Shown one piece after another: positions 11,729-56,413 of a stretch of DNA of 64,000 bases; positions within the stretch are counted from its first letter, which is position 1, and each line of letters opens with the position of its first letter. This DNA comes from Phycisphaerae bacterium (lineage in GTDB: Bacteria > Planctomycetota > Phycisphaerae > UBA1845), in NCBI GenBank assembly GCA_963666835.2, contig CAXXGO010000006.1, positions 576,001 to 640,000 of the forward strand, written 5' to 3'. Both the position numbers and the translations under genes were made by a program. A model generated the notes under the pieces. It saw only the letters and a list, made by a program, of their open reading frames with translations. It did not search any database and was not told the DNA's origin.

Positions 11729-12120
11729 GTTCGTGTTCTCCCAGCGTCTCAACGCGCGACCTACCCAAAGGACGAATTCGGCAACGGCGGCCAAACCCAA
11801 CCGGGCGTAGGAACGCCCGGTCGCTCCGGGCGAGGGGCGCATGGCCACTGCACGATTCTCCGGCAGCGTACCTCGACAGATCGCCGTCTTCAAGCGATAT
11901 TCGCTTACTGACGGAAGTAAGCCGTACACCCGCGAACGGTGCCCCAGCGACGGTTCACAATTGTGCCGCCACGCGCTCCGAGGCCTCCCGGTACGGGCGA
12001 GAGGTTCAGCTCGGCGCCCGGACCGTTCTCTGAAACGGGAGCTTCCGGCTGGACGGGTTGAGCGTAGTCCGCCGGGACGGACTGGATCGAAGCAAGTGAT
12101 GCGGAAGGCCAGCGCGTCAA

Positions 12121-12155
12121 CAGGCGTGCGCACAATCATCCGAGGCGCACGCCTG
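12121..12155 (-). terminator. Possible terminator hairpin downstream of the MCP gene
   Basis: Perfect 11-bp stem caggcgtgcgc/gcgcacgcctg just after the stop codon. The U-tract is weak. Confidence 0.45.
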
Positions 12156-14068: not shown

Positions 14069-14900
14069 CGTCAGTAGCTCCCAGAAAGGTCCGGTCGGAC
14101 AGCGTGCGCCGGCCGGTATATGTGAAACGGACAGGCCTTTACAAAACAAGTCACCTAGATAGCTGCAATGGTCGTGCAGGCAGCCGGCAGAACACCGCGG
14201 GAGTTGTCTTATGGCGGCTTCTGCAACGTACTACCCAGCATTTGATTTGATCGGTATCAGCACAGGGAGGCTACAGTAAATGGCGGGCAAAATAATCCAG
14301 ATTAGTGCAACACTGCTTGGGGAAATTGGGAGAAGGCCAGTCTCGCAATAGCCTGGCCGAATAGGAGCTCGCCGTCGACGATCGGGTCTGTATATCCGGC
14401 GTTTTGGTTAGGGGGAACCCTACACCGCAAGGCCGCTCGTTCGACAAGGGTCTTCGGGTTTTTCCCAGCGCGTCAGTCGACGTTGACTTGGTTGCATGGC
14501 AAGACGTGGGGAATTCGGGTTCCAGCGAGCAGGGCTTGGCCACCACGACTCCATTCTACTGGCAGGACAGCTAAACACCTGACATGTCGAAGGCGACGGA
14601 CACCACCGACCGAATTCACGCCCGGGGATCGGTTGCCCGAGACGGCAGCCGGTCGGCCAGTGGAGACGGTCTGTACTAGGCCTGTGTGGTACCGCCCGGA
14701 CGTTTGACTTGCGACATCCAAGCATGATCGGGACGTTCGATGTTATCGGATGGTCGGTTTACCATCGGCATCCGCTGCTGCTGTCTGGAGAAGATAGGCA
14801 CTTTACAAAATAACAGTAAAACTACTTGGATCCGACGGCCGCGGGTGATACACTGAGGGGTTTGCACACCGTCCCAATAAGAGGAGGAGGTGAGGAGACG

Positions 14901-17630
14901 ATGCGCCAATTGGTTTTAATTGCTCTGACCGTTCTGGCAATCACGCCGTGGAGTGTTGCCCAGCAGGCCAAGACGGTTCCCCAGGATGTGCTGGATCGCA
15001 TCGTCGATAACGATCCGAACCCACTTCCGAAGTACCTGACGCCCGCGGAGCGGCTGATCCCGCGGAAGACCCGCACTGCTCTCGAGGTGCTGCAAACGAC
15101 GGCGCCCCCGACGGGAACGGTACATACCCCGGCGGAGTACGAGCTGAACGAGGGGTTGCTGATCAGTTGGGGGTCGTACAACGACGTGCTGACGGCCATG
15201 ACGGTCGGGGTGACCACGGGCGACCCGGACGGCATCATGTACATCCTGGTCAGCGGGGCGTCGGAACAGAGTAGCGCGACCAGCACGCTGACGTCGGCCG
15301 GGGCGGACATGAGCCAGGTGAGTTTCATCACGTACTCGACCAACACCGTCTGGATACGCGACTACGGTCCGCGTTTCATCTTCGAGGACGGAGTGCGGGC
15401 GATAGTCGATCACGACTACAACCGCCCGCGGCCGTCGGATGACGCGTTCCCGGCGTTTTTGAGTTCGCAGTGGGGCGAGCCGTTGTACGACATTGGTCTG
15501 ACCCACGGAGGCGGCAACTTCCATCTGTTCGCCACCGGTGACGCCTTCATGACAGACCTGATTCTGGACGAGAACTCCGGCTGGACGGAATCGCAGGTTC
15601 AAGACCGGTACGCGGATTACCAGAATCTCGATTTGACGATATACCCCGGCTTCCCCACCAGTTTCGATTCGACTCAGCACATCGACATGTGGATGCTCCC
15701 GGTTGGGGACGACGAGGTAATCATCGGGCAGTATTCGAGTTCTGCGGGTCAGCCGTACACGATTACGGAAAACGCGGTAACGGATCTCACGTCGCGCGGG
15801 TACACGGTTCACCGCACGCCGGGCTGGAACTCGGGCGGGACTCACTACACTTACACGAATGCGGTGATCTTCAACGATATCGTGTTTGTGCCGCGCTTCG
15901 GCGGCTCGTACACGACCCCGGACGCCCAGGCTTTGACGGTATTCGAGACCGCGTTCCCCGCGCCGCAGTATCAGGTTATCCAGGTGGATTGTTCGAGCAT
16001 CATCCACGCGGCCGGGGCGATGCACTGCATCGTAATGCACGTGCCGGCGTACGCGGACCCGATTCCGGTCGTCAAGGTGGTTTCTCCGAACGGGGGCGAG
16101 TACCGGACGGTGGGTCAGGAGTATGACATCACGTGGACGGCGCACGATGACGTCGGGATCACCGGGGTGGACCTGTATTATTCGACGGACGGTGGGGCGA
16201 CTTACCCTCACGTTATCGCCCTGGGCGAGCCGGACGATGGATCGTTTACGTGGCTGGTGCCGAATACCCCATCTACGGAGTGCCGGGTCCGGATCGTGGC
16301 ACATGATGCGGACACCAACTCCGGCGAGGACGTTTCCGACGCTGACTTCGAGATCACGCTATACGGCCCGCAGTTGTTCTACGATTTCCCGATGGATACC
16401 AATCCCGGGTGGACCACGCAGGGGCAATGGGCTTTCGGCAAGGCCACCGGCGGAGGGGGAGCCAACGGCGGTCCCGATCCCACGATGGGGAGCACGGGGA
16501 ACAATGTGTACGGATACAACCTCACCGGCGACTATGCCAACGGCATGCCGGAGTATCATCTGACCAGCACCGCTCTGGATTGCACCGGACTGGAGGACGT
16601 CCACCTGGTCTTCCAGCGGTGGCTGGGCGTTGAGACTTCGACCTACGACCACGCGTACGTGCGGGTGAGCAACAACGGCACGGCGTGGACCACCGTGTGG
16701 GAGAACACGGGCGAGGTCGCCGACACCGCGTGGATAGAGATGGACCTGGACATTTCCGCGGTGGCCGATGACCAGTCGACCGTGTATCTGCGTTGGACGA
16801 TGGGTATCAGCGACAGTTGGGAGGTGTATTGCGGTTGGAATATCGACGACGTCGAGATTTGGGCGATCGGCGATCCCGTGGACTGCAACGCCAACGGCAT
16901 CCCGGACAACCTGGACATCGCGCAAGGGACCAGCGAAGACTGCAACGTCAACGAAGTACCCGATGAGTGTGATATTGCCGAAGGGACCAGCACGGACTTG
17001 AACGGCAACACCGTCCCCGATGAATGTGAAGTCAGTGCACCGCTGGCGGCTTCCTGGCCGTACGGTTTCGGCAAGAACCGGTACATATCGCTGGCGCCGA
17101 ACAACAGCGGCGGGGTAAGCGTTGCCTTGCAGATCGAGTTGGAATCCAGTGTGTTCTTCCCGGATTCGGCCGGGCTGCTGGGATGGATCGGGGAGCCGGA
17201 CGGCGAGGGTATCAGCCGGATAACGACCACGCCGTTCTATACCGACGGCTGGCCCGCGATCGTTCATGTTGGAGACTGCTGGATAGTGCCGGCAGCGACC
17301 TATCATGTTCGGGCGACCGCGGATGAGGCCGTTTTTTCCGAAGATCTCGAACTTGATACTGTCTCGCAACCGTCGCCCAAGTACTGGTGCGACGCGGTGG
17401 GCAGTTACATCGGTGATGAATGGACGGGGCCGAACGGGGTGGTGAGCATGGATGACATCATGGCCACCATCCAGATGTTCCAGGCCTCGCCGAGCGCGCC
17501 GCCGCTTGTTTGGGTTGACGTTGATCCGCAGGTCCCCAACAAGGTGGTCAACATGACCGACGTCATGCAGATGGTGGGTGGATTCAAGGGTCTGCCTTAC
17601 CCGTTCAGCGCTCCGGCGGATTGCCCGTAG
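14901..17630 (+). CDS. Secreted agmatine/peptidyl-arginine deiminase family protein with Ig-like, MAM-like and shared C-terminal domains
   Basis: Strong RBS and signal peptide MRQLVLIALTVLAITPWSVA. Catalytic motifs PAEY, WIRDYGP, GGN, HID, YTN and GAMHC, followed by a VVSPNGGE Ig-like domain. Confidence 0.9.
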   Translation: MRQLVLIALTVLAITPWSVAQQAKTVPQDVLDRIVDNDPNPLPKYLTPAERLIPRKTRTALEVLQTTAPPTGTVHTPAEYELNEGLLISWGSYNDVLTAMTVGVTTGDPDGIMYILVSGASEQSSATSTLTSAGADMSQVSFITYSTNTVWIRDYGPRFIFEDGVRAIVDHDYNRPRPSDDAFPAFLSSQWGEPLYDIGLTHGGGNFHLFATGDAFMTDLILDENSGWTESQVQDRYADYQNLDLTIYPGFPTSFDSTQHIDMWMLPVGDDEVIIGQYSSSAGQPYTITENAVTDLTSRGYTVHRTPGWNSGGTHYTYTNAVIFNDIVFVPRFGGSYTTPDAQALTVFETAFPAPQYQVIQVDCSSIIHAAGAMHCIVMHVPAYADPIPVVKVVSPNGGEYRTVGQEYDITWTAHDDVGITGVDLYYSTDGGATYPHVIALGEPDDGSFTWLVPNTPSTECRVRIVAHDADTNSGEDVSDADFEITLYGPQLFYDFPMDTNPGWTTQGQWAFGKATGGGGANGGPDPTMGSTGNNVYGYNLTGDYANGMPEYHLTSTALDCTGLEDVHLVFQRWLGVETSTYDHAYVRVSNNGTAWTTVWENTGEVADTAWIEMDLDISAVADDQSTVYLRWTMGISDSWEVYCGWNIDDVEIWAIGDPVDCNANGIPDNLDIAQGTSEDCNVNEVPDECDIAEGTSTDLNGNTVPDECEVSAPLAASWPYGFGKNRYISLAPNNSGGVSVALQIELESSVFFPDSAGLLGWIGEPDGEGISRITTTPFYTDGWPAIVHVGDCWIVPAATYHVRATADEAVFSEDLELDTVSQPSPKYWCDAVGSYIGDEWTGPNGVVSMDDIMATIQMFQASPSAPPLVWVDVDPQVPNKVVNMTDVMQMVGGFKGLPYPFSAPADCP

Positions 17631-17886
17631 CTTACGGGTAGATGAAGGGAACCGGCAACGAGTCGATTCCCGCTCGCAGTAGCAAGCGAAGCCTTCCGCG
17701 AGATGCTCGTGTTTCTTTCGGCGGGCCGTCGTAGGAAGAAGGCGGCGAAGCAGGGAGCGCCGCGTATCGGAGTCGTGCGGGTGCGCGTGCAGAGTCACCC
17801 GTACCGGGCGTTTGTGGAAGTCGGCGTATGCCCGCGCCGGAGAGCAAGCCGTCGTATGTTATTCATGCGGCATAGGAGAGAGTCCG

Positions 17887-20817
17887 ATGATCAGCACTAA
17901 TTGCCTCCCCGTCTTTTTGACGAGCATCTTGTTCGCGACTGCGTTATGCGGTACCGGCTTGGCAGACCCGCCATCCTCGTTTGATCTGCGCGACGTGGGC
18001 GGAATCGACTACGTCACCTCAATAAAAAGCCAGACCGGGGGGACATGCTGGACGCATGGAACGATGGCGGCGATCGAAGGCAACCTGTTGATGACCGGCG
18101 CCTGGACGGCGGCCGGCGAAACCGGAGAGCCGAACCTGGCCGAGTATCACCTCGACTGGTGGAACGGTTTCAACGAGCACAACAACGACGACCTTGATCC
18201 TCCGTCCGGCAGTGGGCTGGTAGTCCACGAAGGAGGCGACTATCGCGTGGCGACCGCATACCTTAGCCGGGGTGAAGGAGCGGTTCGGGACGAGGACGGG
18301 CAATCGTACAGTTCACCCCCCTCCCGGTCGGAACCGGGTTACCATTACTACTACCCGCGCGATGTGGAGTGGTTCACGGCCGGGGCGGATCTGAGCAACA
18401 TCGATACGCTCAAGAACAAGATCATGGCCGAAGGAGTCATGGGTACGTGCCTGGCGTACAGCAGTAGCTTCATCTCCAATTACATCCACTATCAGCCGCC
18501 GACCAGTACGATGCTCCCGAATCACGCGGTGGCGATCATCGGTTGGGATGACGATCAGGCGACGCAGGCCCCGCTGGACGGCGCCTGGCTCTGCAAGAAC
18601 AGTTGGGGGTCCGGCTGGGGTAATGACGGCTGCTTCTGGATCTCCTATTACGACAAGTGGGCCGGCCAGGAGCCCGAGATGGGCGCCGTGACCTTCCGAA
18701 ACGTCGAACCGTTCGCCTACGATAACATTTACTACCACGATTATCACGGCTGGCGGGACACGATGACCGGAATCACCGAGGCGTTCAACACGTTCACGGC
18801 CGAGGCCGACGAAACGCTGCAAGCGGTGAGTTTCTTCGTGGCCGCGGACAACGTGACGTATACCGTGCGGATCTATGACCGGTTCGAGGGCGGGGTGCTA
18901 CTGGATGAGCTTTCCAGCACTACGGGTCTGATCGAGTACTCCGGTTTTCACACCATCGATCTGGACAGTGCCGTCGGGTTGTCTGCGGGTGACGACTTCC
19001 ACATTTACGTAGAGCTATCCGCCGGGGGGCACCCGTTCGATCGCACGTCGGATGTGCCGGTTCTGCTCGGAGCGCGATATCGCACGATCGTCGAGTCGGC
19101 GGCCGGGCCGGGCGAGAGCTATTATCATAACGGCTCCGATTGGCGAGACCTGTACGATCATGAGTTTGCCGATTCTTCGTGGGATGGGACGGCCAACTTC
19201 TGTATCAAGGGGTTGGCGGTGGAGAAGGGGCTTTCGGTCACTCCCGACACGGGCCTGTTGGCTGCCGGGCCGGTCGGCGGTCCGTTCGAGCCGGTTTCCG
19301 CCGTTTATGACATAACGAACCAGGACGATCATGCGATCGACTTCGAGGTAACGAAGGACCCTGGGGACACGTGGTTCACGATTACCGGTGACACTACCGG
19401 AAACCTGGACCCGCAGGAGACCGCGCAAATAACCGTCGAGATCAACAGCGGGGCGGACGTTCTGAGCTCCGGAGCGTATAACGGCACGGTGTACATCACC
19501 AACACCACGGATCACCTGGGCGATACGGAGCGTCCGGTGCTATTGGCCGTGGGAGACCCGACCCTGCAATATGAATGGCTTCTCGATACCGATCCCGGCT
19601 GGACCACGGAAGGGCAGTGGGAGTTCGGAATTCCGTTGGGCGGAGGAGGATCTTCCGGAAATCCGGATCCGATGGGTGGCGGCTATACGGGCAGTAATGT
19701 TTATGGATATAACCTGGCCGGCGATTACTCGGTTAACGAACCTGAGCGGCACCTGACCAGTACGGCGATCGATTGCACCGGCCTGCTCAACGTGCATCTG
19801 AAGTTCTGGCGGTGGTTGGGCGTCGAGGAGCCGCGCTGGGATCATGCGTATGTTCGGGTGAGTAATGATGGGACCGATTGGGTCACCGTTTGGGAAAACG
19901 AGGATGAAGTGACCGACTCGACGTGGGTGGAGATGGACTTGGACATCTCGGAGGTGGCCGCCGATCAGGCGACCGTCTATTTGCGCTGGACGATGGGTAC
20001 TACGGATACCGCCGACGTCTTCTGCGGATGGAATATCGACGATATAGCCATTTGGGCGGTGGGTAGCCCGCCCGACTGCAACGACAACGGTATTCCGGAT
20101 CATTTGGATATTTCCGGCGGAACGAGCCCGGACTGCAACGGCAATGGCATTCCGGACGAGTGTGATATCGAGAGCGGGTTCAGCGTGGATAATAACGGCA
20201 ACGATATCCCCGACGAATGCGAGTTGTATCCGCCGGTCGCGGCCGATCCGCCCCACGACGTACTCAAGAACCGGTATTTGTCGTTCAACCCGAACAATAC
20301 CGAAACCGTAGCGCTCCGCGTCGAGATGACCGACAGCACCTTATTCCCGGGCTCTGTCGGCGCGTCCGGATGGGTTGCGGAGCCGGACGGAACCGGACGG
20401 GCCTCGCTTGCTGCGGCGCCGTTCTACAGCTCGGCCTGGCCGGCGCTCGTTCATGTGGGCCATTGCCGGATCACGCCGGGTTCGGAATACGAAGTCCGCG
20501 CCACCGCTGACGGGACCAACTTCTCCGACGCTTTGACGGTCATGACGGCGGACCAGCCGCTACCCAAGGTATGGGCCGACGTCGTGGGACCGTTCGGCAG
20601 TGCAGAGTGGACCGCACCCAACGGTATTGTGAGTATGGACGACCTCATGGCGGCGGTTCAGAAGTTCCAGGCGGTAGCAACAGCGCCACCTTTGACCTGG
20701 GTAGACGTAGACGGCGAACAGCCCAACGGGGTCGTGAATATGACCGACCTCCAGCAGATTGTGAATGCGTTCAAAGGTCAGTCGTACCCGTTCAGTGCTC
20801 CGGCTGACTGTCCATAG
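17887..20817 (+). CDS. Secreted papain-family (C1) cysteine protease with lectin-like, BACON-like, MAM-like and shared C-terminal domains
   Basis: Signal peptide followed by PSSFDLR. Catalytic Gln/Cys in SQTGGTCW, His in NHAVAIIGW and Asn in KNSWG. Start set at ATG 17887 after an AGGAG RBS. Confidence 0.9.
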   Translation: MISTNCLPVFLTSILFATALCGTGLADPPSSFDLRDVGGIDYVTSIKSQTGGTCWTHGTMAAIEGNLLMTGAWTAAGETGEPNLAEYHLDWWNGFNEHNNDDLDPPSGSGLVVHEGGDYRVATAYLSRGEGAVRDEDGQSYSSPPSRSEPGYHYYYPRDVEWFTAGADLSNIDTLKNKIMAEGVMGTCLAYSSSFISNYIHYQPPTSTMLPNHAVAIIGWDDDQATQAPLDGAWLCKNSWGSGWGNDGCFWISYYDKWAGQEPEMGAVTFRNVEPFAYDNIYYHDYHGWRDTMTGITEAFNTFTAEADETLQAVSFFVAADNVTYTVRIYDRFEGGVLLDELSSTTGLIEYSGFHTIDLDSAVGLSAGDDFHIYVELSAGGHPFDRTSDVPVLLGARYRTIVESAAGPGESYYHNGSDWRDLYDHEFADSSWDGTANFCIKGLAVEKGLSVTPDTGLLAAGPVGGPFEPVSAVYDITNQDDHAIDFEVTKDPGDTWFTITGDTTGNLDPQETAQITVEINSGADVLSSGAYNGTVYITNTTDHLGDTERPVLLAVGDPTLQYEWLLDTDPGWTTEGQWEFGIPLGGGGSSGNPDPMGGGYTGSNVYGYNLAGDYSVNEPERHLTSTAIDCTGLLNVHLKFWRWLGVEEPRWDHAYVRVSNDGTDWVTVWENEDEVTDSTWVEMDLDISEVAADQATVYLRWTMGTTDTADVFCGWNIDDIAIWAVGSPPDCNDNGIPDHLDISGGTSPDCNGNGIPDECDIESGFSVDNNGNDIPDECELYPPVAADPPHDVLKNRYLSFNPNNTETVALRVEMTDSTLFPGSVGASGWVAEPDGTGRASLAAAPFYSSAWPALVHVGHCRITPGSEYEVRATADGTNFSDALTVMTADQPLPKVWADVVGPFGSAEWTAPNGIVSMDDLMAAVQKFQAVATAPPLTWVDVDGEQPNGVVNMTDLQQIVNAFKGQSYPFSAPADCP

Positions 20818-20890
20818 ATGGAGAATCTCTACGGAGCGCTTTCTCAGGGAAGTGTGCCCCGGATGATATGTAGAAAGGAATGGAACGAAA

Positions 20891-23800
20891 ATGTACGAGC
20901 CGACCGCTGCCCGAGATGCAAGGTTTCTCCGCATCGTGATGTTGGTCGTATTCGCCGCGGCTCTGGGACGCAGTGCGGGGGCGAGTCAATCCGAGCCGAT
21001 CGTTGTTTCCATGACGATCCCGGCGGAGTCGCCGAAAGTGATCCCGGGTGACGAGGGCAGCGAGTTGCGGGTCGAGGGGTTTGGCAACCTCCATTGCGCC
21101 GGCGAGCCGGCACTGCCCAGCAAGATCTTCGCGATCGGAATTCCCCCGGGGAGCGAAGTCGCCAAGGTGACGTTTGATTTGGGTGCCGAGGTTGTTTTAC
21201 CCGGAACGTATCGCGTCGCTCCGGCCAAGCTCTCGCGGGTCATCGGCGAGGAGGATCCCGCGCTGTACGCCCGAGATCTTCAGCGTTTCAACGAGCGTTA
21301 CGAAGCCGTGTACGGCAGCGATGATGCCTACCCATCGTTGACGGTGGAGCCCGTGCGGCAGGCCGGCTATCGCAAATATGATCTTGTCGATGTGCGGGTC
21401 ACCCCGGTCGCCTATCATCCGAAGTCCGGCCGGCTGAGCTACTACTCCGCTATCACGGTTCACGTCCACTGTGAGCCGGCGTCTGCTCCGAAGCAGGCTA
21501 TCGTGGACAGCCTGGCCAAGAACGAGCGTATTGCCCGGGAGATCGTGGCCAACTACGACCAGGCGGCCGGCTGGCATCCGCAGACGGACGCCGCTGCCAA
21601 GGGGCTGTACGACTTCGTTATTGTCACTTTGGATACTCTGACATCCGCGGTAACGCCGTTGGTTAATTGGGAGACGTCCAAAGGTCGCAATGTAAACGTC
21701 GTCACGACGTCCTGGATCGACGCCAACTACACCGGATACGACCTGGCCGAGAAGATCCGCAACTTCCTGCGGGAGAAGTACCCGTCCGGTGAATGGGGAA
21801 TACAGGATGTGTTGCTGATCGGGCATTACGACGATGTCCCGATGCGGCGGACAGCCCAGGATGTGGGATACGGCCAGCCGGAGACTGACTTCTATTATGC
21901 GGAGCTGTCGCTGCCGGATAGCGAATCCTGGGATTCCAACGGGAACCACCAATGGGGCGAGGACGCCGATGCGATTGACTTTTACGCGGAAGTGAACGTC
22001 GGGCGGATTCCGTGGAGCCAGCCGACTACGGTCGCGAGTATCTGCAACAAGTCGGTGGCATTCGAGCAGAACCAGGACCCCGCGTTCAAGAAGAACATGC
22101 TGCTTCTCGGGGCGTTCTTCTGGTGGGATACCGACAACGCTTATCTCATGGAGGCCAAGATCGATCAACCCTGGATGAGCGATTGGACGTTCACCCGGAT
22201 GTACGAGAAGAATACGGATTATTCGTCATCGTTCGATTGCGACTATCCGCTGCTCAACAGCAACGTAATGTCGGTCTGGCCGACAGGGCAGTACGCATTC
22301 GTGAACTGGGCCGGGCACGGTTCACCGACGTCGACGCACATATACGGTCTGGGAGCCCCCGCGTTTATCGATTCGTCCGATTGCCCCTCGCTGAGCGACG
22401 ACTATCCGGCGATCATCTTTGCGGATGCGTGCAGTAACTCGGACACGGACGATTTGAATATCGGCCAGGCCATGCTGGAGCACGGCGCGGTCGGATTTGT
22501 CGGTGCCACCAAGGTGGCTCTGGGTACTCACGCATGGTCGAGCGGCTATGACGGCTCCAGCCAATCACTCGACTACTTCTTCACTACGTGCGTAACTTCC
22601 GGCGAGTATACGCAAGGTGAAGCGCTGCAGTGGGGTCTGCGAGAGATGTACACCCACGGGCTGTGGGACTACAACAAGTACGAGACGTTCGAGTGGGGCG
22701 CGTTGTGGGGTAATCCGAATCTGCGAATCGGCCCACCGCCGATTATGAAGATTCAACTGCCGGACGGTCCGCCGGAGTATATGGAGCCCGGAGTCGCCAC
22801 GGAGTTTACCGTGCAGATTCAGAGTGGGTCCGAGACCTACGTGCCGGGCTCAGGCATGCTCCATTATCGCTACGACGGCGGAGTGTATCTGACGACTCCG
22901 CTCACCCACAATGTGGCGGATTACTATATCGCCACTCTGCCGGGGACCGGTTGTGCGTCTACGCCCGAGTTCTATATCAGCGCTCAGGGCGACGGGGGCA
23001 GCACGGTGCTCAACCCGGCCGCGGCGCCCAGCTCGGTCTACACCGCAACGGTGGGATTATGGGCTGCGGTTTTCGAGAATCCTCTTGACGTCGACCCCGG
23101 CTGGACTACCGAGGGGCTGTGGGCGTTCGGGCCGCCGACCGGCGGTGGAGGGGAACATGGCGGCCCGGATCCGACGAGCGGCTACACCGGTGATAACGTC
23201 TATGGCTATAACCTCAGCGGTGATTACGAAGATGAACTTACCGTCGAGCAGCATTTGACCAGCGCGGCCATCGACTGCAGCGCAAAGAGCAACGTGAAGC
23301 TGATGTTCCAGCGTTGGCTGGGGGTCGAACAGCCGCGCTGGGATCATGCATACGTTCGAGTTAGTAACAATGGTACGAATTGGACCACCGTATGGGAGAA
23401 TGAGCAGGAAGTCACCGACACCACTTGGCAGTTGTGCGAGTATGACATCTCCTCCGTCGCCGACGATCAGCCGAGTGTATACGTTCGCTGGACTATGGGT
23501 ACTACGGATACCAGTTACAGATACTGCGGCTGGAATATCGACGATGTCGAGGTATGGGCTCTGGATACGTCGTTCGAGACCTGTGCAGACGGCGTACTGA
23601 ACCAGGGCGAAGAGCGCATCGACTGCGGCGGGCCGTGCCCGCCCTGCGAATGCCTGACCGACGAGGAGTGTGGCGACGGGCTCTACTGCAACGGTGGGGA
23701 AGTGTGCGACGTGCTCGGGCACTGCGGATCCGGCGCGTACCCGTGCCCGGGCCAGATGTGCGATGACGCCGGCGACGCGTGCGTGGACATCGCTTGCACG

Positions 23801-25090
23801 ACGGCCCCGGAGTGCGACGACGGACTCTACTGCAACGGGATAGAAACTTGCGTAGGCGATGTTTGCCAACCGGGAACACCGATCGATTGCGGCGACGGCA
23901 TTGCCTGTACGGTAGATTCGTGTGACGAGGTCGCGGACACCTGTGTTAACCTGCCGAGTGCGACGCGATGTGATGACGGCCTGTACTGCAACGGGGTTGA
24001 GATCTGCGATGCTCTGACCGGTTGCCAGGGAGGCGCGGCCATCGAGTGCGGCGATGACGTGGACTGCACCGTAGACTCCTGCAACGAGCTTCTCGATACG
24101 TGCAATAACATTCCCAGCGACGCGGCGTGCGACAACGCTCTGTTCTGTGACGGAGCGGAAACGTGCGATCCGGTGGCCGGTTGTCTGACCGGAGTGGCTC
24201 CATGTGTTCCGGACCAGATGTGTCGCGAGACCGATGACCAGTGTGTCGAGTGCGTAGAGGACAAGGACTGCCCGGACGACGGGGATCTCTGTAATGGAGC
24301 GGAAGTATGCACGTACGCGGGCGATTGTACTCATACGCCGGTCGCCGACTGCAACGAGAACGGCGTGGAGGATGAATGCGATATTCTCGACGGTACGAGC
24401 GAGGACTGTCAGCCGAATGGGGTTCCGGATGTGTGCGATCTCGACGGCGGGGGATCGGCCGATGAGAATGGCAACGACATCCCGGACGAATGTGAGGCTG
24501 AGCCGCCGCTGGCGGCCCCAGCCCCGTACGATATCAGTTACAATCGCTACATCGCATTCATACCAAACAACTCCAGCGCTGTCGCGCTGCGGGTCGAGGT
24601 GACCGGGAGTGTGCATTCACCGGATTCGGTCGGAGTCTTCGGTTGGGTCGGGCAGCAGGGGCCGGATTCGGTATCGCAGATTGTCTCGGAGCCGTATTTC
24701 TCAGATTTCTGGCCCGCAGTGGTGCGCGTGGCCGATTGCCTGATCGTCCCGGCCGCAACGTACTCGATTACCGCGACCACCCAGGGGACGCTCTTTAGCG
24801 AGCCCTTGGAGGTAATGACCACGCCTGCGCCGTTGCCCAAGGCGTGGGCCGATGTAGTTGGCGAGTTTACGGGCGACAGTTGGTCGGCACCTGACGGTTT
24901 GGTGGGTATGAACGACATTATGGCGACTGTCCAACGGTTTCAGGCCGTACCGACGGCTCCGCCGACGATGCAGGTGGATGTCGACGGGCAGACGCCCAAC
25001 CGAGTGATTAACATGACGGATGTGCTTCAGGTGGTGAACGCGTACCAGGGTGAGCCGTACCCGTTCAGCGATCCGGCAGGCTGTCCGTAA
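20891..25090 (+). CDS. Secreted gingipain-like C25 cysteine peptidase with propeptide, MAM-like domain, Cys-rich repeats and shared C-terminal domain
   Basis: C25 propeptide (GEPALP..IGIPPG), IRNFL, VLLIG, TDFYYA, VGRIP, catalytic AGHGS and FADACS, and LWGNP. Confidence 0.9.
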   Translation: MYEPTAARDARFLRIVMLVVFAAALGRSAGASQSEPIVVSMTIPAESPKVIPGDEGSELRVEGFGNLHCAGEPALPSKIFAIGIPPGSEVAKVTFDLGAEVVLPGTYRVAPAKLSRVIGEEDPALYARDLQRFNERYEAVYGSDDAYPSLTVEPVRQAGYRKYDLVDVRVTPVAYHPKSGRLSYYSAITVHVHCEPASAPKQAIVDSLAKNERIAREIVANYDQAAGWHPQTDAAAKGLYDFVIVTLDTLTSAVTPLVNWETSKGRNVNVVTTSWIDANYTGYDLAEKIRNFLREKYPSGEWGIQDVLLIGHYDDVPMRRTAQDVGYGQPETDFYYAELSLPDSESWDSNGNHQWGEDADAIDFYAEVNVGRIPWSQPTTVASICNKSVAFEQNQDPAFKKNMLLLGAFFWWDTDNAYLMEAKIDQPWMSDWTFTRMYEKNTDYSSSFDCDYPLLNSNVMSVWPTGQYAFVNWAGHGSPTSTHIYGLGAPAFIDSSDCPSLSDDYPAIIFADACSNSDTDDLNIGQAMLEHGAVGFVGATKVALGTHAWSSGYDGSSQSLDYFFTTCVTSGEYTQGEALQWGLREMYTHGLWDYNKYETFEWGALWGNPNLRIGPPPIMKIQLPDGPPEYMEPGVATEFTVQIQSGSETYVPGSGMLHYRYDGGVYLTTPLTHNVADYYIATLPGTGCASTPEFYISAQGDGGSTVLNPAAAPSSVYTATVGLWAAVFENPLDVDPGWTTEGLWAFGPPTGGGGEHGGPDPTSGYTGDNVYGYNLSGDYEDELTVEQHLTSAAIDCSAKSNVKLMFQRWLGVEQPRWDHAYVRVSNNGTNWTTVWENEQEVTDTTWQLCEYDISSVADDQPSVYVRWTMGTTDTSYRYCGWNIDDVEVWALDTSFETCADGVLNQGEERIDCGGPCPPCECLTDEECGDGLYCNGGEVCDVLGHCGSGAYPCPGQMCDDAGDACVDIACTTAPECDDGLYCNGIETCVGDVCQPGTPIDCGDGIACTVDSCDEVADTCVNLPSATRCDDGLYCNGVEICDALTGCQGGAAIECGDDVDCTVDSCNELLDTCNNIPSDAACDNALFCDGAETCDPVAGCLTGVAPCVPDQMCRETDDQCVECVEDKDCPDDGDLCNGAEVCTYAGDCTHTPVADCNENGVEDECDILDGTSEDCQPNGVPDVCDLDGGGSADENGNDIPDECEAEPPLAAPAPYDISYNRYIAFIPNNSSAVALRVEVTGSVHSPDSVGVFGWVGQQGPDSVSQIVSEPYFSDFWPAVVRVADCLIVPAATYSITATTQGTLFSEPLEVMTTPAPLPKAWADVVGEFTGDSWSAPDGLVGMNDIMATVQRFQAVPTAPPTMQVDVDGQTPNRVINMTDVLQVVNAYQGEPYPFSDPAGCP
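23575..24345 (+). repeat. Cys-rich protein repeats within the first C25 gene
   Basis: About five CxDG(L/D)xCNGxExC-type units, two CTVDSC units and one CADGVLNQGEERIDCGGPC unit. Confidence 0.8.
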
Positions 25091-25173
25091 GGGAGCAGGG
25101 GAGGTATCCGGTCGGCACTGGGAGCGTTTTGCCCTCGGGCCTGCCGGGTCCTCGAATGAAAGGAAACGTCACG

Positions 25174-27600
25174 ATGCAACGTATGACCGGTTGTACCAGC
25201 AAGCCTCATTGCAGGGCGTATTGGATTCTGGCAGTTGTCGTTGGGCTCAGTGCGAGCGGGGCCTTCGCGGGTGATTCAGCAGTCAGCCTGACGATATCGC
25301 CCGGCGAATGTCAGATAATCGACACGGAGAATGGGGTGAAGCCCTTTCTGGACGGGTTCGGCTACTCGCTCGTGCCGGGTACCCCGACCTTGCCGTCCAG
25401 GATCTTCGCCATTGCCGTCCCCGCCGGCGCGCAAGTGCAGGCAATCGACGTCGAGATGGGCGAAGGCGTACTGCTACCCGGGGCTTTCGATATCGCTCCG
25501 GCTCCGTTGCCGCGTGTGATCGGGCAGGAAGATCCGACGGTCTATGCCCGCGAAAAGGCGACCTATGACAGCAACTTCACCGCCGTGTACGAAAGCGCCG
25601 ACGCCTACCCAAAGCTCGCGGCGGAGCTGGTCCGCACGGCCGGGTATCGCAAGTATAACCTTGCAGATGTGCGGGTAACGCCGTTCGCCTATCGTCCCTT
25701 GCTGGGTGAGTTGACGTACTATCCGAACGTGACGGTCCATGTTCAGTACGATCTGCCGGATACGGCCCGGGCCGCGATTATCGACGACCTGCCCCGCACG
25801 GAACGGATCGCGCGGGAGATCATTGCTAATTATGACGAGGTTTCCGATTGGTATCCGCGGTCTGCGCGGGCGGGTCGCGGACTCCACGATTACGTCATCG
25901 TCACGACCGACTCCCTGGCCTCGTCCGTAACGTCTTTGGTTGATTGGGAGACATACAAAGGGCGAACGGTCGAGGTGGTAACCACGTCGTGGATCAACTC
26001 CAACTACTCGGGTTATGATACCGCGGAGAGAATCCGCAACTTCCTTCGGGACAAATACCCGTCCGGGGAGTGGGGTATAGAGGACGTGCTGCTCGTCGGG
26101 CATTACGATCAAGTGCCCATGCGCCGCACCGCTCAGGACGAAGGCTACGGAAGACCGGAGACGGACTTCTACTATGCAGAGCTTTCGCAAGCGGACAGCG
26201 ATTCGTGGGATAGCGACGGCGATCGGCAGTATGGGGAGTACAGTGATTCGATCGACTACTATGCGGAGGTCAACGTCGGGCGCATCCCGTGGAGCGATCG
26301 GGATACGGTTCAGCACATTTGCGAAAAATCTGTGGCCTACGAGCAGAACGGCGATCCAACCTATAAGAAAAACATGCTGCTGCTGGCCGCCTACTTCTGG
26401 GCGAATACGGATAACGCCGAGCTGATGGAAGAGAAGACCGCCCAACCTTGGCTGGCGGATTGGACGTTTACCAAGCTCTACGAGAAGAACGGCGATTACT
26501 GGTCCTCCTATGCCTGTGACTACCCGCTTACCCGTGCGAATGTCCAATCGGTATGGCGGAACGGTCAATTCGCATTCGTCAACTGGGCCGGGCATGGTTC
26601 TCCAACCTCGACCCACATTTACGGACTCGGGGGCACGGCCTTCGTGAACTCGTACGATTGCGGATTCCTGAACGATGATTATCCCGCCGTTATTTTCGCG
26701 GACGCCTGCAGCAACTCCGATACGGACGAAACCAACATAGGCCAGGAGATGCTCAGGCAGGGCGCGGTGGGGTTCGTCGGGGCCACCAAAGTGGCGTACG
26801 GCTGTAGCGGCTGGAACAGCCCCTATGACGGATCGAGCCAATCACTGGACTACTTCTTTACTTCGTATGTAACCAGCGGGGACTACACGCAGGGCGCGGC
26901 CCTGCAGCGGGCAATGCGCGAGATGTATACGAATGGGTTGTGGTACTACACCAAGTATGAGACTTTCGAGTGGGGGGCCTTATGGGGCAATCCGAATCTT
27001 AGTATGGATATACCCGACGTGTCGGCGCCTATAGCCGTGGGAGGACCGAAGAACCGTTATGTCTCCTTCGGACCTAATAGTGGCGGAATGTGGACGGCGT
27101 ATCAGGTCGAGCTGACCGACAGCGAGTACTTTCCGGAGTCCCGCGGAGTGCTCGGCTGGGTCGGTGAACCTGACGCCGATGGAATCGCGAGCATCGTTGC
27201 CGAGCCGTATTTCACCGGGGACTGGCCGGAGGTTGTTCATGTAGGTGACTGCCGGATCGTCCCGGCTGCGGTTTACGAAGTCCGGGCGAGCGGGGACGGA
27301 GTAATGCTGACCAACGCGCTGGAGCTGCCTACGATAACCAGCCCGAATGGGAAATACTGGTGCGACTGCGTCGGCCCGTTTATCGGAGAGTGGTCCTGGC
27401 CGGATGGCAATGTGACGATGGACGACATAATGGCCGCCGTTCAGGTCTTTCAGGCCGCGCCGTCCGCCCCGCATGTGACCTGCGTGGACGTCGACGCCCA
27501 GGAACCCAACAAGGTGGTCAATATGACCGACATTATGCGGATTGCTCAGGGATTCGGCGGAGAGCCGTATCCGTTCTGTGATCCGGGTGCGTGCCCGTAG
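25174..27600 (+). CDS. Secreted gingipain-like C25 cysteine peptidase, paralogue of the upstream gene, with shared C-terminal domain
   Basis: Same propeptide and catalytic motifs (AGHGS, FADACS, VGRIP, LWGNP). Start at ATG 25174 after an AAGGA RBS. Signal peptide ends ASGAFA. Confidence 0.9.
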   Translation: MQRMTGCTSKPHCRAYWILAVVVGLSASGAFAGDSAVSLTISPGECQIIDTENGVKPFLDGFGYSLVPGTPTLPSRIFAIAVPAGAQVQAIDVEMGEGVLLPGAFDIAPAPLPRVIGQEDPTVYAREKATYDSNFTAVYESADAYPKLAAELVRTAGYRKYNLADVRVTPFAYRPLLGELTYYPNVTVHVQYDLPDTARAAIIDDLPRTERIAREIIANYDEVSDWYPRSARAGRGLHDYVIVTTDSLASSVTSLVDWETYKGRTVEVVTTSWINSNYSGYDTAERIRNFLRDKYPSGEWGIEDVLLVGHYDQVPMRRTAQDEGYGRPETDFYYAELSQADSDSWDSDGDRQYGEYSDSIDYYAEVNVGRIPWSDRDTVQHICEKSVAYEQNGDPTYKKNMLLLAAYFWANTDNAELMEEKTAQPWLADWTFTKLYEKNGDYWSSYACDYPLTRANVQSVWRNGQFAFVNWAGHGSPTSTHIYGLGGTAFVNSYDCGFLNDDYPAVIFADACSNSDTDETNIGQEMLRQGAVGFVGATKVAYGCSGWNSPYDGSSQSLDYFFTSYVTSGDYTQGAALQRAMREMYTNGLWYYTKYETFEWGALWGNPNLSMDIPDVSAPIAVGGPKNRYVSFGPNSGGMWTAYQVELTDSEYFPESRGVLGWVGEPDADGIASIVAEPYFTGDWPEVVHVGDCRIVPAAVYEVRASGDGVMLTNALELPTITSPNGKYWCDCVGPFIGEWSWPDGNVTMDDIMAAVQVFQAAPSAPHVTCVDVDAQEPNKVVNMTDIMRIAQGFGGEPYPFCDPGACP

Positions 27601-27761
27601 CACGGACGCGCTGACCGGCAGAAGACCGCAGCGCATTCGTAATAGAGACTGGGCCCACTCTTTCCCCCCGTGGCAAGAGGGGTTGAGTACCGCGCGCGTT
27701 GAACGCCGCGCTTGTTGAGCACTTTGCCTGTCGACAACGGCGGCGACTGAAGGAGTCGACC

Positions 27762-30700
27762 ATGGTGCAGTGGGTAGCTTGGGTTGTCATCGGGCTGGCG
27801 ACCGCGGCGTCGGTGACGGGCGCGGATCCGGAATCCGTGGCCGAGGTCACTACAAGGAGCCCGGACGCGCTAGTCACGGCGAAAGCTGAGTTGCGCGGTA
27901 TTGAACGAACCGGCAGGGTTCGGCAGGATCCGCGGGACATTCCCCGTTTGAAGTGGACTTCGCCGCATGGCGAGCTACCCGGTACGTACGCTGAGTATCT
28001 GCGCCGCCATCCACTCGAGACGGCACGCTACTTACCCGAGCGGACAATGCCGGCCGCACCACCGGCACGGGGAGTCGAGCCCGTAATCCTCTCTATCCTT
28101 GTCGACGCCGATCTGCAACCACTGATCTCCGTTGCGCTGGACGAATACGTTGCGGACCTCTCGGCCGAGGGATATACGGTCCGGGTCGGAAGCGTCTCCG
28201 GCGGCACGCCGGCGGAGATCAAGGGGTGGGTGGCGGGGCAACACGCCACCGGAAGCGACGGAGTGATCTTCATCGGAGATATCACGGCCGCCTGGGCGGA
28301 GGTCTCGGAATCGGTCTTTCCCAGCGATCTGTTCTATATGGATCTTGACGGGCTGTGGGCGGACGAGGACGGGGATGGGGACTTCGAAGTCCATGAGGCC
28401 GGGGCGGGGGACGAGGGCCCGGAGATCTACGTGGCCCGCATGTACGCCCACACTCTCGATTACGACACCGAAGCCAACATGGTCAGCGCGTATCTGGCCA
28501 AGGCCCACGCCTATCGCACCGGTACTCTGACCCAGCCTTGGCGAGGTTTGGAGTATGTCGACGAAGACTGGTACTCCATGTCGGTCGATTTGGAACAGGT
28601 CTACGGCGGTGATGTCGCCCGGTACGATCTCGGGTTCTCCACCACGGCCGCGGATTACCTGGAGAAGATGGATATTGGACAGCATTTCGTCCAGGTGTGT
28701 GCCCACAGCTACTCGGGCGGTCATCACTTCGGCCAACGTCCGACCGAGGCGGCGGCCTATGCCCATGTGTATGTCCACAGCCCGACTGCTCGGGCGGCTA
28801 AGCTGCTGGTCGGCAGCGACGATGGTATCAAGGTCTGGCTGAACGGCGCAAACGTCCTGACCGAGGACGTGTATCAGGGTTGGATAGCGGATCAATTCGA
28901 TGTCGACGTGACGCTTGATGAGGGCTGGAATAGCCTGTTGTGCAAGGTCAGCCAAGCCGGGGGCAGTTACGGGTTCTCGGCCCGGGTGACGGATCCGGCG
29001 TACTCATCGTTTAGCGATCTTACCTATCAAGTGAATGATCCGACGGTCTTCGTATCGCAGGAACAGTTCATTCGCGGTTGGCTGCTCAATGGGTTTCACG
29101 AGGACATCTCGGACAACTTCTGGAGTTATCTGACCACGAACTACCTGGGGACGGATGAGGACAGAATCAACCCAACGGCCGGTGATGTAATGGGCGGTCA
29201 GACTTGGACCCTCTACACGACGGACAGCGGCTATGTCAATATGGATCCCGGCGATGAGCTGAGTTTCGGTGCTTCTTACGCGTTCACCAGAGTGTACGCG
29301 GTGGAGGCCACGAGTTGTCAGCTCTGGCTTGGTTACGACGAAGGCGCCCGGGTGTGGCTGAATGGGGCGGTCGTGCTTACGGACAATCGCTACGGTGATT
29401 TCGAATTGGACCTGGCCAAGATCGATGTGAATCTGACTGCCGGAGAGAACCGGCTGCTCATCAAAGTGTCGGAGTGGGTGGGCCCGCACGGTCTGGCTGC
29501 CCAGTTCCGCCAGGCGGACGGCGGGGCGGTCGCCGGCCTGACGTACGATCCGGACCCGCCGCCGATAAGTTTCATTGCAGACTGGCTCATCAACGGGCCC
29601 TACGGGAATGTCGACGACGCCACCCGGCTGAGCCAGGACTACCTCGGCGATGAAGCGACCGTGACACCCAGCGAGGGCGATCCCGCGGCGTTCGAAGTGT
29701 GGAACCGCCTCTTCGCCACCGGCGCCCCGGTCGACCTGGTTGCCCCTCTGGAACGCGACGGCGGGTGGGTAACCTCGGCCGACATCCAACAACAGGATCC
29801 GCCGGTGCTCTTCTACAATCTGTTCGCGTGCGGGCCCGGCCGGTTTACCGACGACAATTACTTAGCCGGGTCGTATATCTTCAACACGACATACGGTCTG
29901 ATTACGATTGCGTCATCCAAGAGCGGCAGCATGCTCAACTTCGCAGACTTCACCGCTCCGCTTGGTGAAGGCAAAACAATCGGCACAGCCTTTCTCGAGT
30001 GGTTTGACGCCCAAGCCCCGTTCGACCTGTGGGAACGTGAGTGGTACTACGGCATGGTCCTCAACGGCGACCCGACGCTTCGTCCGGTCAAGGCCGGTGA
30101 CCTCGATCGCGACGGCGACGTTGACGCGGACGACTTCGATTCGTTCGTAATGTGCTTCACCGGTACGGGCGGCGGACCGATCGCTCCCGAATGTGCCCCG
30201 GGTGATTCCGATTCCGACGGCGACGTCGATTGTGATGACTGGACCCAGTTTGAGCTATCCTGGACTGAGGCCGGTGCCCCGCCGACACTGGCGGTGTGCG
30301 ACGTTGCCGCTCCGCTTCCGGCCCCGGCACCTCACGACGGTCCTAAGAACCGCTACGTGTCCTTCGCTCCCGCCGCCGGCGAGAATCTCGCGTTCCGCGT
30401 GGAGCTGACGCAGTCGGCGCTGTTTCCCGATTCGACCGGTCCGGTCGGCTGGGTCGGTGCTCCGGATGCCGAAGGGTTGGCACTATTGATTAGTGAGCCG
30501 TATTACACCGACTCCTGGCCTGCGGTAGTGCATGCCGGGGGCTGTGCGGTGACGCCGGCGGCGACGTATCGGATTCGGGCAACGGACGGAGTGGGTGAAT
30601 CCGACCCGCTGGATGTGGCAACGGCCGCAGCCCCGACGCCGAAACACTGGGCTGACTGCGTAGGCGAGTTCGTCGGCTCCTGGGGCCCGCCGAACGGGTT

Positions 30701-30890
30701 AGTTAACGTAAACGATCTAATGGCCGCGATTCAGAAGTTCCAGGCCCTTCCCACCGCCCCGCATTCATCCTGGGTCGACGTAGACGGCGAGACGCCGAAT
30801 CAAGTCGTCAATATGACCGACGTCCAACAGATTCTGAACGGGTACAAAGGCAGTCCGTATCCGTTCAGCGCCCCGGCCGACTGCCCGTAG
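27762..30890 (+). CDS. Secreted divergent C25-like peptidase with inserted beta-sandwich domains, a dockerin-like pair and shared C-terminal domain
   Basis: AGGAG RBS and signal peptide. GVIFIGD, PSDLFYMDLDG, PEIYVAR, CAHS (His), LFAC (Cys) and LNGDPTL. Insert motifs GSDDGIKVWLNG and GYDEGARVWLNG. GDLDRDGDVD..GDSDSDGDVD pair. Confidence 0.8.
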   Translation: MVQWVAWVVIGLATAASVTGADPESVAEVTTRSPDALVTAKAELRGIERTGRVRQDPRDIPRLKWTSPHGELPGTYAEYLRRHPLETARYLPERTMPAAPPARGVEPVILSILVDADLQPLISVALDEYVADLSAEGYTVRVGSVSGGTPAEIKGWVAGQHATGSDGVIFIGDITAAWAEVSESVFPSDLFYMDLDGLWADEDGDGDFEVHEAGAGDEGPEIYVARMYAHTLDYDTEANMVSAYLAKAHAYRTGTLTQPWRGLEYVDEDWYSMSVDLEQVYGGDVARYDLGFSTTAADYLEKMDIGQHFVQVCAHSYSGGHHFGQRPTEAAAYAHVYVHSPTARAAKLLVGSDDGIKVWLNGANVLTEDVYQGWIADQFDVDVTLDEGWNSLLCKVSQAGGSYGFSARVTDPAYSSFSDLTYQVNDPTVFVSQEQFIRGWLLNGFHEDISDNFWSYLTTNYLGTDEDRINPTAGDVMGGQTWTLYTTDSGYVNMDPGDELSFGASYAFTRVYAVEATSCQLWLGYDEGARVWLNGAVVLTDNRYGDFELDLAKIDVNLTAGENRLLIKVSEWVGPHGLAAQFRQADGGAVAGLTYDPDPPPISFIADWLINGPYGNVDDATRLSQDYLGDEATVTPSEGDPAAFEVWNRLFATGAPVDLVAPLERDGGWVTSADIQQQDPPVLFYNLFACGPGRFTDDNYLAGSYIFNTTYGLITIASSKSGSMLNFADFTAPLGEGKTIGTAFLEWFDAQAPFDLWEREWYYGMVLNGDPTLRPVKAGDLDRDGDVDADDFDSFVMCFTGTGGGPIAPECAPGDSDSDGDVDCDDWTQFELSWTEAGAPPTLAVCDVAAPLPAPAPHDGPKNRYVSFAPAAGENLAFRVELTQSALFPDSTGPVGWVGAPDAEGLALLISEPYYTDSWPAVVHAGGCAVTPAATYRIRATDGVGESDPLDVATAAAPTPKHWADCVGEFVGSWGPPNGLVNVNDLMAAIQKFQALPTAPHSSWVDVDGETPNQVVNMTDVQQILNGYKGSPYPFSAPADCP

Positions 30891-49972: not shown

Positions 49973-50330
49973 TACGACCTCCGTGGAACGATGGATGCGA
50001 CGGATTGTCGACAGCGCGGGCGCGCACGACCGAACGGCCAAACGAGCTCCGCGCTGGACGCCGAGGATACCCTATTTGCCCTGGCAAAACCATCTTCTCA
50101 CCGCGAGGTCGCCCGCGGTTACCTGGGAAACGCCGGCGGGGCAAGGTGGCTCGTTGCGATCCTGTATCGCGGCTCGGCGGGAGTGCTGCGAGGCCACGGC
50201 GAAGCCCCATATGCAGAAGACGAGTCGATTCCGCCATCCGAACCCGTGCCGTGCATCTTGAAATGGCGTTCTTCTCGGACCCGCGGGTTTTCCACTTGTC
50301 TCGGCGCCGGGGATATCAGAGGTTTGATTC

Positions 50331-55890: not shown

Positions 55891-56413
55891 GATCCTCCAC
55901 GCTGAGCACGGTCATCAGTGCTTCGTCAAGATGGTCGGGGAGATTCGCCACCCTCTTAGTCCGAGCCTGGACGCTTTTATCAACCAGGTTTTTCATGACG
56001 GGAAGACAAACACCTTCGTCATCGACCTGAGCGAAACTCGCTTCATCGACAGCACGAATCTGGGCCTGTTGGCCAAGATCGCCCGCCAGACCATGCAGAA
56101 CAAATGGGATCCGCCCATCCTGGTGTCCGGCAGCGAGGAGGTCGATGCCGTCCTCGAGAGCATGGGGTTTGACGAGGCCTTCACCGTAGTCGGTTCCGCC
56201 GGCTGTCCCGGGGAAGAACTCCACGAAACGCCGGCCGCCGATGTCGAAGTCCAAGCCCGAGCCCGCCTCATTCTCGAAGCTCATCGAGCGCTGGCGGACA
56301 TGAACGACACCTGCCGGGACATGTTCCACGACGTAGTGGAAATGTTCGAAAGAGAGGTTGCTTCTCAAAGTCGCCCGTCGGATACTAAAACAACAGTCTT
56401 GGAGAACGACTGA
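55877..56413 (+). CDS. STAS-domain anti-sigma-factor antagonist
   Basis: VIDLSETRFIDSTNLGLL with the phosphorylatable Ser, and a C-terminal ILEAHRAL helix. Overlaps the upstream phosphatase gene. Confidence 0.88.
   Translation: MAPNKILHAEHGHQCFVKMVGEIRHPLSPSLDAFINQVFHDGKTNTFVIDLSETRFIDSTNLGLLAKIARQTMQNKWDPPILVSGSEEVDAVLESMGFDEAFTVVGSAGCPGEELHETPAADVEVQARARLILEAHRALADMNDTCRDMFHDVVEMFEREVASQSRPSDTKTTVLEND

Follow-up and report, generated by a model that had tools for sequence, protein, structure and literature searches.

Why should five consecutive genes for diverse secreted enzymes all end in the same tail of about 197 amino acids (aa)? The question is raised by a 64,000-nucleotide stretch of a Phycisphaerae bacterium genome (contig CAXXGO010000006.1, positions 576,001 to 640,000, hereafter "the window"), in which five consecutive open reading frames (ORFs) on the + strand, at 14826-17630, 17812-20817, 20891-25090, 25129-27600 and 27699-30890, carry one shared C-terminal module. 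An earlier note on this DNA had proposed that the tail marks an undescribed sorting, anchoring or assembly system. We find that the module is no new secretion or sorting system; it is predicted to be a fibronectin type III (FnIII)-like X module joined to a dockerin, with its own candidate cohesin class. The best reading of the tail is that of a docking tag in a surface protease complex resembling the hypothetical planctosome.

Pairwise BLASTP comparisons of the five tails gave 51-59% identity, 188-225 bits and E values of 1e-65 to 1e-79; shuffled domains (100 sets) scored 26.2 bits at best. The five-copy alignment has 48 invariant columns, and the copies end in YPFSAPADCP (three times), YPFSDPAGCP and YPFCDPGACP. 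The earlier note's account of the locus was accurate in these respects and in the coordinates given for the five tails, and also in describing diverse secreted cargo, for which Pfam recognizes PAD_porph, Peptidase_C1 and C25 domains (the signal peptides were assigned by visual inspection and a crude hydrophobicity window). The module is fused directly to the C25 domain in the fourth gene, as had been noted, and behaves as an autonomous unit. A terminal transmembrane helix and basic tail are absent from all five sequences, which match no family of the PEP-CTERM or IPTL-CTERM type, in agreement with the view that they are not sortase or exosortase substrates.

Structure prediction and Foldseek, both suggested in the earlier note, divide the tail in two. 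The note had called it one domain; the shared unit of about 197 aa stands, but it is predicted to comprise a FnIII-like sandwich (residues 1-113, the X module) followed by a divergent dockerin (the last 84 residues or so). In copy 1 the predicted X-module sandwich spans 17031-17384 (+) and holds a mid-domain cysteine (C83), and the dockerin spans 17385-17627 (+), with a W-x-D loop 1, a helix, loop 2, a second helix and the YPF..CP tail. The AlphaFold model of the whole module has a mean predicted local distance difference test (pLDDT) score of 97.2 and a predicted template modelling score of 0.91. The best VIA match of residues 1-113 was a FnIII domain (Z 5.9, root-mean-square deviation 2.3, 81 residues aligned), and Foldseek also returned FnIII (E 5.5e-4). 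FnIII chains filled the VIA list at Z 5.0-5.9, with no X-dockerin chain among the matches listed, and we read this likeness between model and database as a common arrangement, not as specific homology. Fold searches with the whole module returned the FnIII half only; the dockerin emerged once the last 84 residues were folded alone (pLDDT 88.4; helices at 25-35, 44-47 and 60-70). Dockerin chains were then the first 15 of 27 VIA matches (best Z 6.4, root-mean-square deviation 2.3, 59 residues aligned), with the first non-dockerin fold at only Z 2.2, and Foldseek ranks 1-14 were all dockerins (E of at least 0.45).

Sequence profiles led to the same domain. The GC-type dockerin model NF041540 matched 28 of 36 family members, below its cut-off of 29 bits (copy 1 scored 14.4), and none of its 11 matches across the genome reaches that cut-off. 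Pfam Dockerin_1 (PF00404) matched none of the 36 members at E <= 1, and the remaining Pfam matches were weak and unrelated. No Pfam or NCBIfam cut-off was reached, which agrees with the earlier note's failure to assign the full domain to a named family. Against PDB sequences, a half-module profile found its best matches in the type II X-dockerins of ScaA and CipA (E 0.01-0.03), its top row being a repetitive viral protein that matched via many weak stretches only; the whole-module profile found no match there. Loop 1 is uninterrupted in two distant members (L036, L037), which lack the insertion described below and read as ordinary dockerins. The nearest Atlas clusters were Planctomycetota proteins, then Dockerin_1 and dockerin/FnIII clusters, with recognition just below the Atlas threshold. 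A literature search found no description of the X-dockerin module, though subscription papers and supplements may hold one.

Both calcium loops of the dockerin are retained. Across 87 rows (59 copies from this genome and 28 rows, one per other genome), D121, D142 and D177 are present in 87/87 and D163 in 85/87, with N or D at 135 and 170 in most. The loops also carry insertions, of about 10 aa in loop 1 and 2-3 aa in loop 2, and position 3 of loop 1 is not acidic. Fold, profile and calcium ligands all mark the last 84 residues or so as a dockerin, and the proposal of an undescribed sorting or secretion signal is not supported.

Two cysteines had been described as invariant and as potential disulfide partners. 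The last Cys is indeed found in 59/59 copies of this genome, but C83 occurs in 54/59 here and 13/28 rows elsewhere (67/87 overall) and is therefore not invariant across the family. The 20 rows without C83 have a Cys at position 66 (eight rows), 48 (eight), 46 (one) or 39-40 (three); no C83 row has a Cys at 66 or 48, and three C83 rows that lack the last Cys carry C40 instead. The proposed disulfide is plausible, and it likely joins the last Cys to the X module, clasping the dyad. Recognition positions are uniform in the genome (M140 in 44/59, M175 in 57/59, T/S176 in 57/59) and varied in the 28 rows from other genomes, a pattern that could reflect genome-specific recognition via Met-x pairs at loop positions 10-11.

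The earlier note would have taken restriction to the five locally duplicated genes as a refutation; the domain is not so restricted. A search of the genome with a 36-row profile (A3), counting as full copies those covering >80% of the module, found 65 matching ORFs and 59 full copies, 52 of which lie within 20 residues of the stop codon. The other seven comprise two in RHS proteins, two followed by a cohesin-like domain and three with other tails. The crude hydrophobicity window flagged 52/59 carrier N-termini, several of them doubtful. Among 54 of the 59 carriers scanned with Pfam, at thresholds that differed between scans, 20 have a peptidase family (S8 in eight, C25 in four, M1 and C10 in two each, C1, M10, M43 and trypsin); the remainder include FGE-sulfatase-like, DUF7901, FG-GAP and propeller domains. 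No glycoside-hydrolase catalytic family was found in the 54, and BNR repeats occur in two. A pattern scan of the genome_contigs set produced 51 stretches, none confirmed.

The module is present in 46/200 genomes of the order and in 30/47 of its own family, most of these with at least 16 matches. A narrow five-row profile found 0/400 in a phylum sample whose family labels omit this order's families. HMMER searches over 1.84 billion representatives (E <= 1e-10) recovered 3,459 clusters at 50% identity, a metagenome scan recovered 2 loci, and two homologues bear the NCBI names "Phycisphaerae bacterium" and "Planctomycetes bacterium". Among the best 150 of the 3,459 representatives, a list biased towards repeat-bearing proteins, the module is terminal in 126, and 46 carry two or more modules, one of them seven. 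The C-terminal position that the note asked about is thus predominant rather than exclusive, and the internal and multiple copies fit a binding module and not a terminal export signal.

Some of the copies stand in unusual surroundings. Two copies interrupt RHS repeat shells, one in an RHS protein that has a signal peptide (L116; G000:C1:1482366-1489136, -) and one in an orphan RHS C-terminal cassette that lies downstream and differs in its tip (G000:C1:1474984-1477089, -); their position suggests that interbacterial RHS toxins are displayed at the surface via the same plug. Near-identical and broken copies occur at G000:C1:1707307-1729245, with frameshifted or split ORFs at 1710604-1711818 and 1727371-1729245, and at C1:484279-485271 an in-frame fusion places a copy after an ORF that looks like a four-helix bundle or Avd. 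Proteins P0026 and P0027-P0031 appear non-catalytic and have between three and seven X-dockerins each, in several cases grouped around one cohesin-like domain (CohII, below); they are candidate branching hubs. In order-level relatives without detected CohII (loci L023, L028, L031, L033), a single module lies inside a calcium-repeat protein of about 2,200 aa and is followed by another dockerin.

A dockerin calls for a cohesin, and the genome encodes three cohesin-like classes (CohI, CohII and CohIII). CohI comprises 13 domains and matches solved cohesins to E 1.8e-8; in L052, two CohI domains stand between a signal peptide and an IPTL-CTERM tail, both domain types scoring over their Pfam cut-offs. 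CohII comprises about 25 domains of about 184 aa each. Cohesin clusters account for 23 of 30 Atlas matches of L057 (top 0.94), which matches Pfam Cohesin at E 0.035. This protein (G000:C1:1543088-1543672) is a secreted polypeptide of 194 aa that consists of one free CohII domain, possibly a cap, chaperone or decoy. CohII is also found on the IPTL-CTERM proteins L053, L055, L056 and L072, and there are separate CohII+IPTL proteins without any dockerin. IPTL-CTERM matches in the genome number 50, of which 35 are over the cut-off. IPTL-CTERM tails are processed by exosortase H, consistent with the model names, and the CohII proteins that bear them may be anchored in an exosortase-H-like manner. 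The genome encodes five secretins. It is 92% complete and has at most two domains of the three profiled cohesin-like classes per polypeptide.

Phylogenetic profiling, another check the earlier note had proposed, singled out CohII. Over 200 genomes of the order (counts given as both / first only / second only / neither), the module and CohII were distributed 39/7/6/148 (phi 0.82), and the module and CohI 41/5/56/98 (phi 0.44). The pattern is reversed for a second X-dockerin (class B, alignment A8; 110/200 genomes), which was distributed 94/16/3/87 with CohI (phi 0.82) and 42/68/3/87 with CohII (phi 0.42). Profiles of the two X-dockerin classes, A and B, aligned at a probability of 7.7%, with no meaningful alignment. 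Within the module's own family, CohII was present in 30/30 module-positive genomes. Genome G482 offers the case in trans: its single module gene lies 10 kb from a single separate gene for CohII with an IPTL-like tail (the tail, at 19.2 bits, is just under the cut-off), and the genome has no CohI or class-B match.

The two domains also meet in cis. CohII occurs on 10/59 carriers in the genome and CohI on 0/59, with 49/59 having no detected cohesin at all; on the best 150 representatives, CohII occurs on 48 and CohI on none. Dockerin and CohII stand in direct tandem in 18 of those 150 representatives and, among 55 distinct ORFs taken from selected loci of other genomes, in 22, separated by linkers of 11-45 aa, and a tandem-bearing cluster is conserved in G479, G446, G464, G500 and G590. 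In G450, G462 and G418 (L140-L152), many different cargo proteins end in an X-less dockerin of the same family with CohII directly after it.

Other dockerins accompany the cohesins of these genomes. Class-B X-dockerins end the CohI-bearing proteins L046-L051, L066 and L071 (G000) and L086-L091, followed by a third calcium-loop-like segment. A third dockerin type stands directly before CohIII in L063 (G000:C6:1340067-1342043), L089:8483-17089 and L090:3124-11343, the same dockerin-then-cohesin grammar built from different parts. A fourth C-terminal type, which matches Pfam Dockerin_1 and ends in LNGAG-W, occurs on CohII-bearing proteins (L054, L069, L070 and G000:C6:848554-850341), among them two large S8/beta-helix proteins. 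An IPTL-CTERM-like segment also occurs in the middle of one of the module's carriers (L110, G000:C1:489798-494546, about residues 470-500), between two secreted modules, reminiscent of a midcut by XrtH.

With the predicted anatomy, and with the calcium ligands, the 59 copies, the cohesins in the genome and the co-occurrence as observed, CohII is the likely binding partner and calcium the likely ligand. We consider it probable that the X-dockerin stays on the secreted enzyme and docks calcium-dependently on CohII, in a surface complex held by IPTL-CTERM CohII proteins. The enzymes would be exported with the tail intact, presumably by Sec and then across the outer membrane; the dockerin would fold on binding calcium, with the X module and the disulfide clasp as braces, and plug into CohII; and the IPTL-CTERM CohII proteins would keep the complex on the cell surface, where the gathered proteases would break down polypeptides. 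Of the three functions guessed at earlier (secretion signal, surface anchor and scaffold-docking unit), the evidence favors the last and does not support a secretion or sorting signal.

A number of observations weigh against this reading. The best dockerin Z of 6.4 is below the tool's caution line of 8, and no Foldseek match has E <= 0.001. Calcium and cohesin binding may be altered by the loop insertions and by a residue other than Asp or Asn at position 3 of loop 1. Sequence searches of the PDB with CohII returned no solved cohesin, and a profile comparison of CohI with CohII gave no match. Common descent inflates the co-occurrence, as does the frequent presence of both domains in one polypeptide; CohII went undetected in seven genomes that have the module; and diverged copies escape the searches, since G418, scored as having neither, carries the X-less dockerin-CohII tandem. 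In G482, a further cohesin-looking domain lies between the module gene and the CohII gene. The cis cohesin of cellulosomal proteins is often non-cognate, which would point to CohI. About 59 plugs face about 25 CohII domains in the genome, none in a long tandem array, and the XrtH-like gene scores 81.1 bits, below its cut-off of 86.

Other explanations were weighed. The plug might bind CohI of the IPTL-anchored two-cohesin protein, with the cis CohII serving another dockerin class in the manner of an adaptor. The lack of CohI in cis, on the genome's carriers and the best 150 representatives alike, is what avoidance of self-binding would produce; L052 looks like an anchoring scaffoldin; and CohI, the only class that matches solved cohesins, is present in 41/46 module-positive genomes. 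Yet 56 genomes have CohI but lack the module, the class-B X-dockerin is a far closer companion of CohI, and G482 holds the module and CohII with no CohI match; we think this assignment unlikely. We give similarly little credence to the idea that the dockerin-like part binds no cohesin in trans and is instead a calcium-stabilized surface-binding or folding module, directed at cell-surface polymers, minerals or, intramolecularly, a neighboring CohII. Insertions in both loops, short tandem linkers that might let dockerin and CohII close on each other, the roughly 2:1 excess of plugs and the seven genomes without CohII would all fit; the 49 copies without a cis cohesin nonetheless keep uniform recognition residues, and the dockerin-free CohII+IPTL proteins and the co-occurrence with CohII also speak against it.

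Far less probable is that the tail serves specifically for secretion or sorting, as a C-terminal signal recognized and removed by an export machine in the manner of the C-terminal domain (CTD) of type IX secretion. The cargo (C25, C10, PAD and choice-of-anchor J) resembles type IX substrates, and most copies are terminal; against this, the terminus is a helical dockerin, copies occur internally, N-terminally, up to seven-fold and inside RHS proteins, no TIGR04183 match was found in the genome, and 30 other window ORFs that were scanned include no transporter or processing gene for the cargo (nor a cohesin or a sortase). A search for SprA found no match in the genome, and the control genomes gave none either.

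The docking of X-dockerin on CohII also admits a bolder extension, which we regard as possible though doubtful: a self-extending, branched extracellular mesh without a large scaffoldin, built from orthogonal plug-socket pairs. The mesh would start on the cell from IPTL-CTERM CohII proteins and grow head-to-tail through proteins that combine plug and CohII; those with two to seven plugs would branch and cross-link it, and plug-only enzymes, such as the five of the cluster, would cap it; the class-B X-dockerin/CohI pair, and perhaps a third pair, would form parallel layers. If true, this would invert the logic of the cellulosome, with multivalent dockerins and monovalent cohesins, and would tie sorting by exosortase H to the display of cohesins in a diderm.

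Catalytic motifs were found in the five cluster enzymes, all on the + strand, three of which are gingipain-like C25 peptidases (two over the cut-off). Gene 1 (14901-17630) encodes a signal peptide, a Porphyromonas-type peptidylarginine/agmatine deiminase (PF04371, PAD_porph, E 5e-28; NF038128 matches below its cut-off), Ig-like and choice-of-anchor-J-like domains and the X-dockerin tail. Gene 2 (17887-20817) encodes a signal peptide, a papain-family C1 peptidase (PF00112, Peptidase_C1, E 2e-14), a lectin-like domain (PF18560, Lectin_like, E 1e-29) and X-dockerin copy 2 (20227-20814, dockerin from 20572; NF041540 at 18.8 bits, below the cut-off of 29). In gene 3 (20891-25090), a signal peptide, C25 propeptide and C25 peptidase (PF01364, Peptidase_C25, E 6e-38) are followed by a MAM/choice-of-anchor-J-like domain, Cys-rich repeats and copy 3 (24497-25087, dockerin from 24845). 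Gene 4 (25174-27600, starting at 25156 or 25174) has a signal peptide, C25 propeptide and C25 peptidase (PF01364, E 9e-43), with copy 4 (27022-27597, dockerin from 27358) directly C-terminal of the C25 domain.

Gene 5 (27762-30890) encodes a signal peptide and a divergent C25-like peptidase with a weak, split PF01364 match (E 5e-4, below the cut-off). Its catalytic His motif is at 28698 and its Cys motif at 29823, with an insertion of about 375 aa between them that holds two jelly-roll-like repeats. The protein carries two dockerins of different class in succession: an internal GC-type-like dockerin (30099-30251, +), the best NF041540 stretch, just upstream of X-dockerin copy 5 (30303-30887, dockerin from 30648). 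The whole protein scores 30.4 bits against NF041540 (cut-off 29), summed over several stretches.

Local tandem duplication as the sole origin of the five copies was rejected; the five copies need four changes on a quick tree, the careful search being unfinished. On that tree four of the five window copies have their nearest neighbor elsewhere in the genome, and the five are not a clade. A promoter and terminator scan of the window was uninformative (3 and 12 sites where 6.5 and 11.0 were expected). Elsewhere in the window, 10466-12139 (-) encodes a probable lipoprotein, unannotated and without a Pfam match, whose long low-complexity linker is rich in Asp and Asn; it sits upstream of the 3' end of a methyl-accepting chemotaxis gene. 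The ORF at 6799-10008 (-) encodes a 1,069-aa MscS-family protein with a long, MscK-like N-terminal coiled-coil region. Two very large multi-PAS histidine kinases (43862-50041, -, and 56413-60486, +) adjoin SpoIIE phosphatase and STAS partner-switching genes.

The module is like cellulosomal dockerins (PF00404; PDB 2ccl_B, 4dh2_D, 3ul4_B) in predicted fold, in the duplicated calcium loop-helix, whose loops have Asp at positions 1 and 12, in its C-terminal position on many secreted enzymes and in the presence of cohesins in the same genome. It differs in its loop insertions, its FnIII-like X module (obligate in this subfamily), its YPF..CP tail with a likely disulfide and its lack of a Pfam match. 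Its cargo consists of peptidases and adhesins, is not dominated by glycoside hydrolases and does not comprise cellulases, and no primary scaffoldin with many tandem cohesins was found in the 92%-complete genome. A beta-sandwich X module also directly precedes the type II dockerins of Clostridium thermocellum CipA and A. cellulolyticus ScaA (2b59, 5g5d, 4u3s, 4wi0) and the type III dockerin of R. flavefaciens (4iu2). The CipA/ScaA-type X-dockerins share the W-x-x-D start and the loop-1 insertion in alignment; they are single, on scaffoldins, whereas the module has 59 copies on dozens of enzymes. GC-type dockerins, which by NCBI names occur in the same class of organisms and give the weak matches noted above, have shorter loops and lack the X module and CP end. 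Type IX CTDs end in a terminal beta-sandwich of the TIGR04183 type, which is absent here.

At the level of the system, the nearest idea we would name, by analogy, is the planctosome of Nemodlikiaceae, a hypothesized cohesin-dockerin complex with peptidases in Phycisphaerae (PMC6461901); a cellulosome-like complex with peptidases has likewise been hypothesized for Ca. Stygibacter (PMC8542988). Dockerin-borne peptidases and cohesin proteins occur together in this genome as in the planctosome model. As far as the available text of both reports goes, the two models rest on recognizable Pfam-type domains with a lamin-tail or CTD anchor, and that text mentions no X-dockerin, second cohesin class, IPTL-CTERM anchor or multi-dockerin hub (PMC6461901, PMC8542988). 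Lamin-tail domains do occur in module-bearing proteins of clusters outside the family (G479); the present genome (G000) shows IPTL-CTERM tails. A precedent for chain extension is ScaH of R. flavefaciens, described in a review as one cohesin and one dockerin that act as a "variable length spacer" (PMC12484212); it is a single dedicated adaptor, whereas here dockerin and CohII are on many cargo proteins themselves. Giant multi-dockerin proteins are noted in Omnitrophota in a bioRxiv paper (10.64898/2026.06.07.730766).

The analysis puts a name to a large unannotated family of 3,459 clusters, and the planctosome idea gains small, expressible parts: the plug, together with candidates for its socket and its anchor. 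Designers of enzyme scaffolds would gain two further cohesin-dockerin pairs, apparently orthogonal and of diderm origin. If plug and socket in cis prove to be cognate, the assembly logic of these bacteria would differ from that of the cellulosome.

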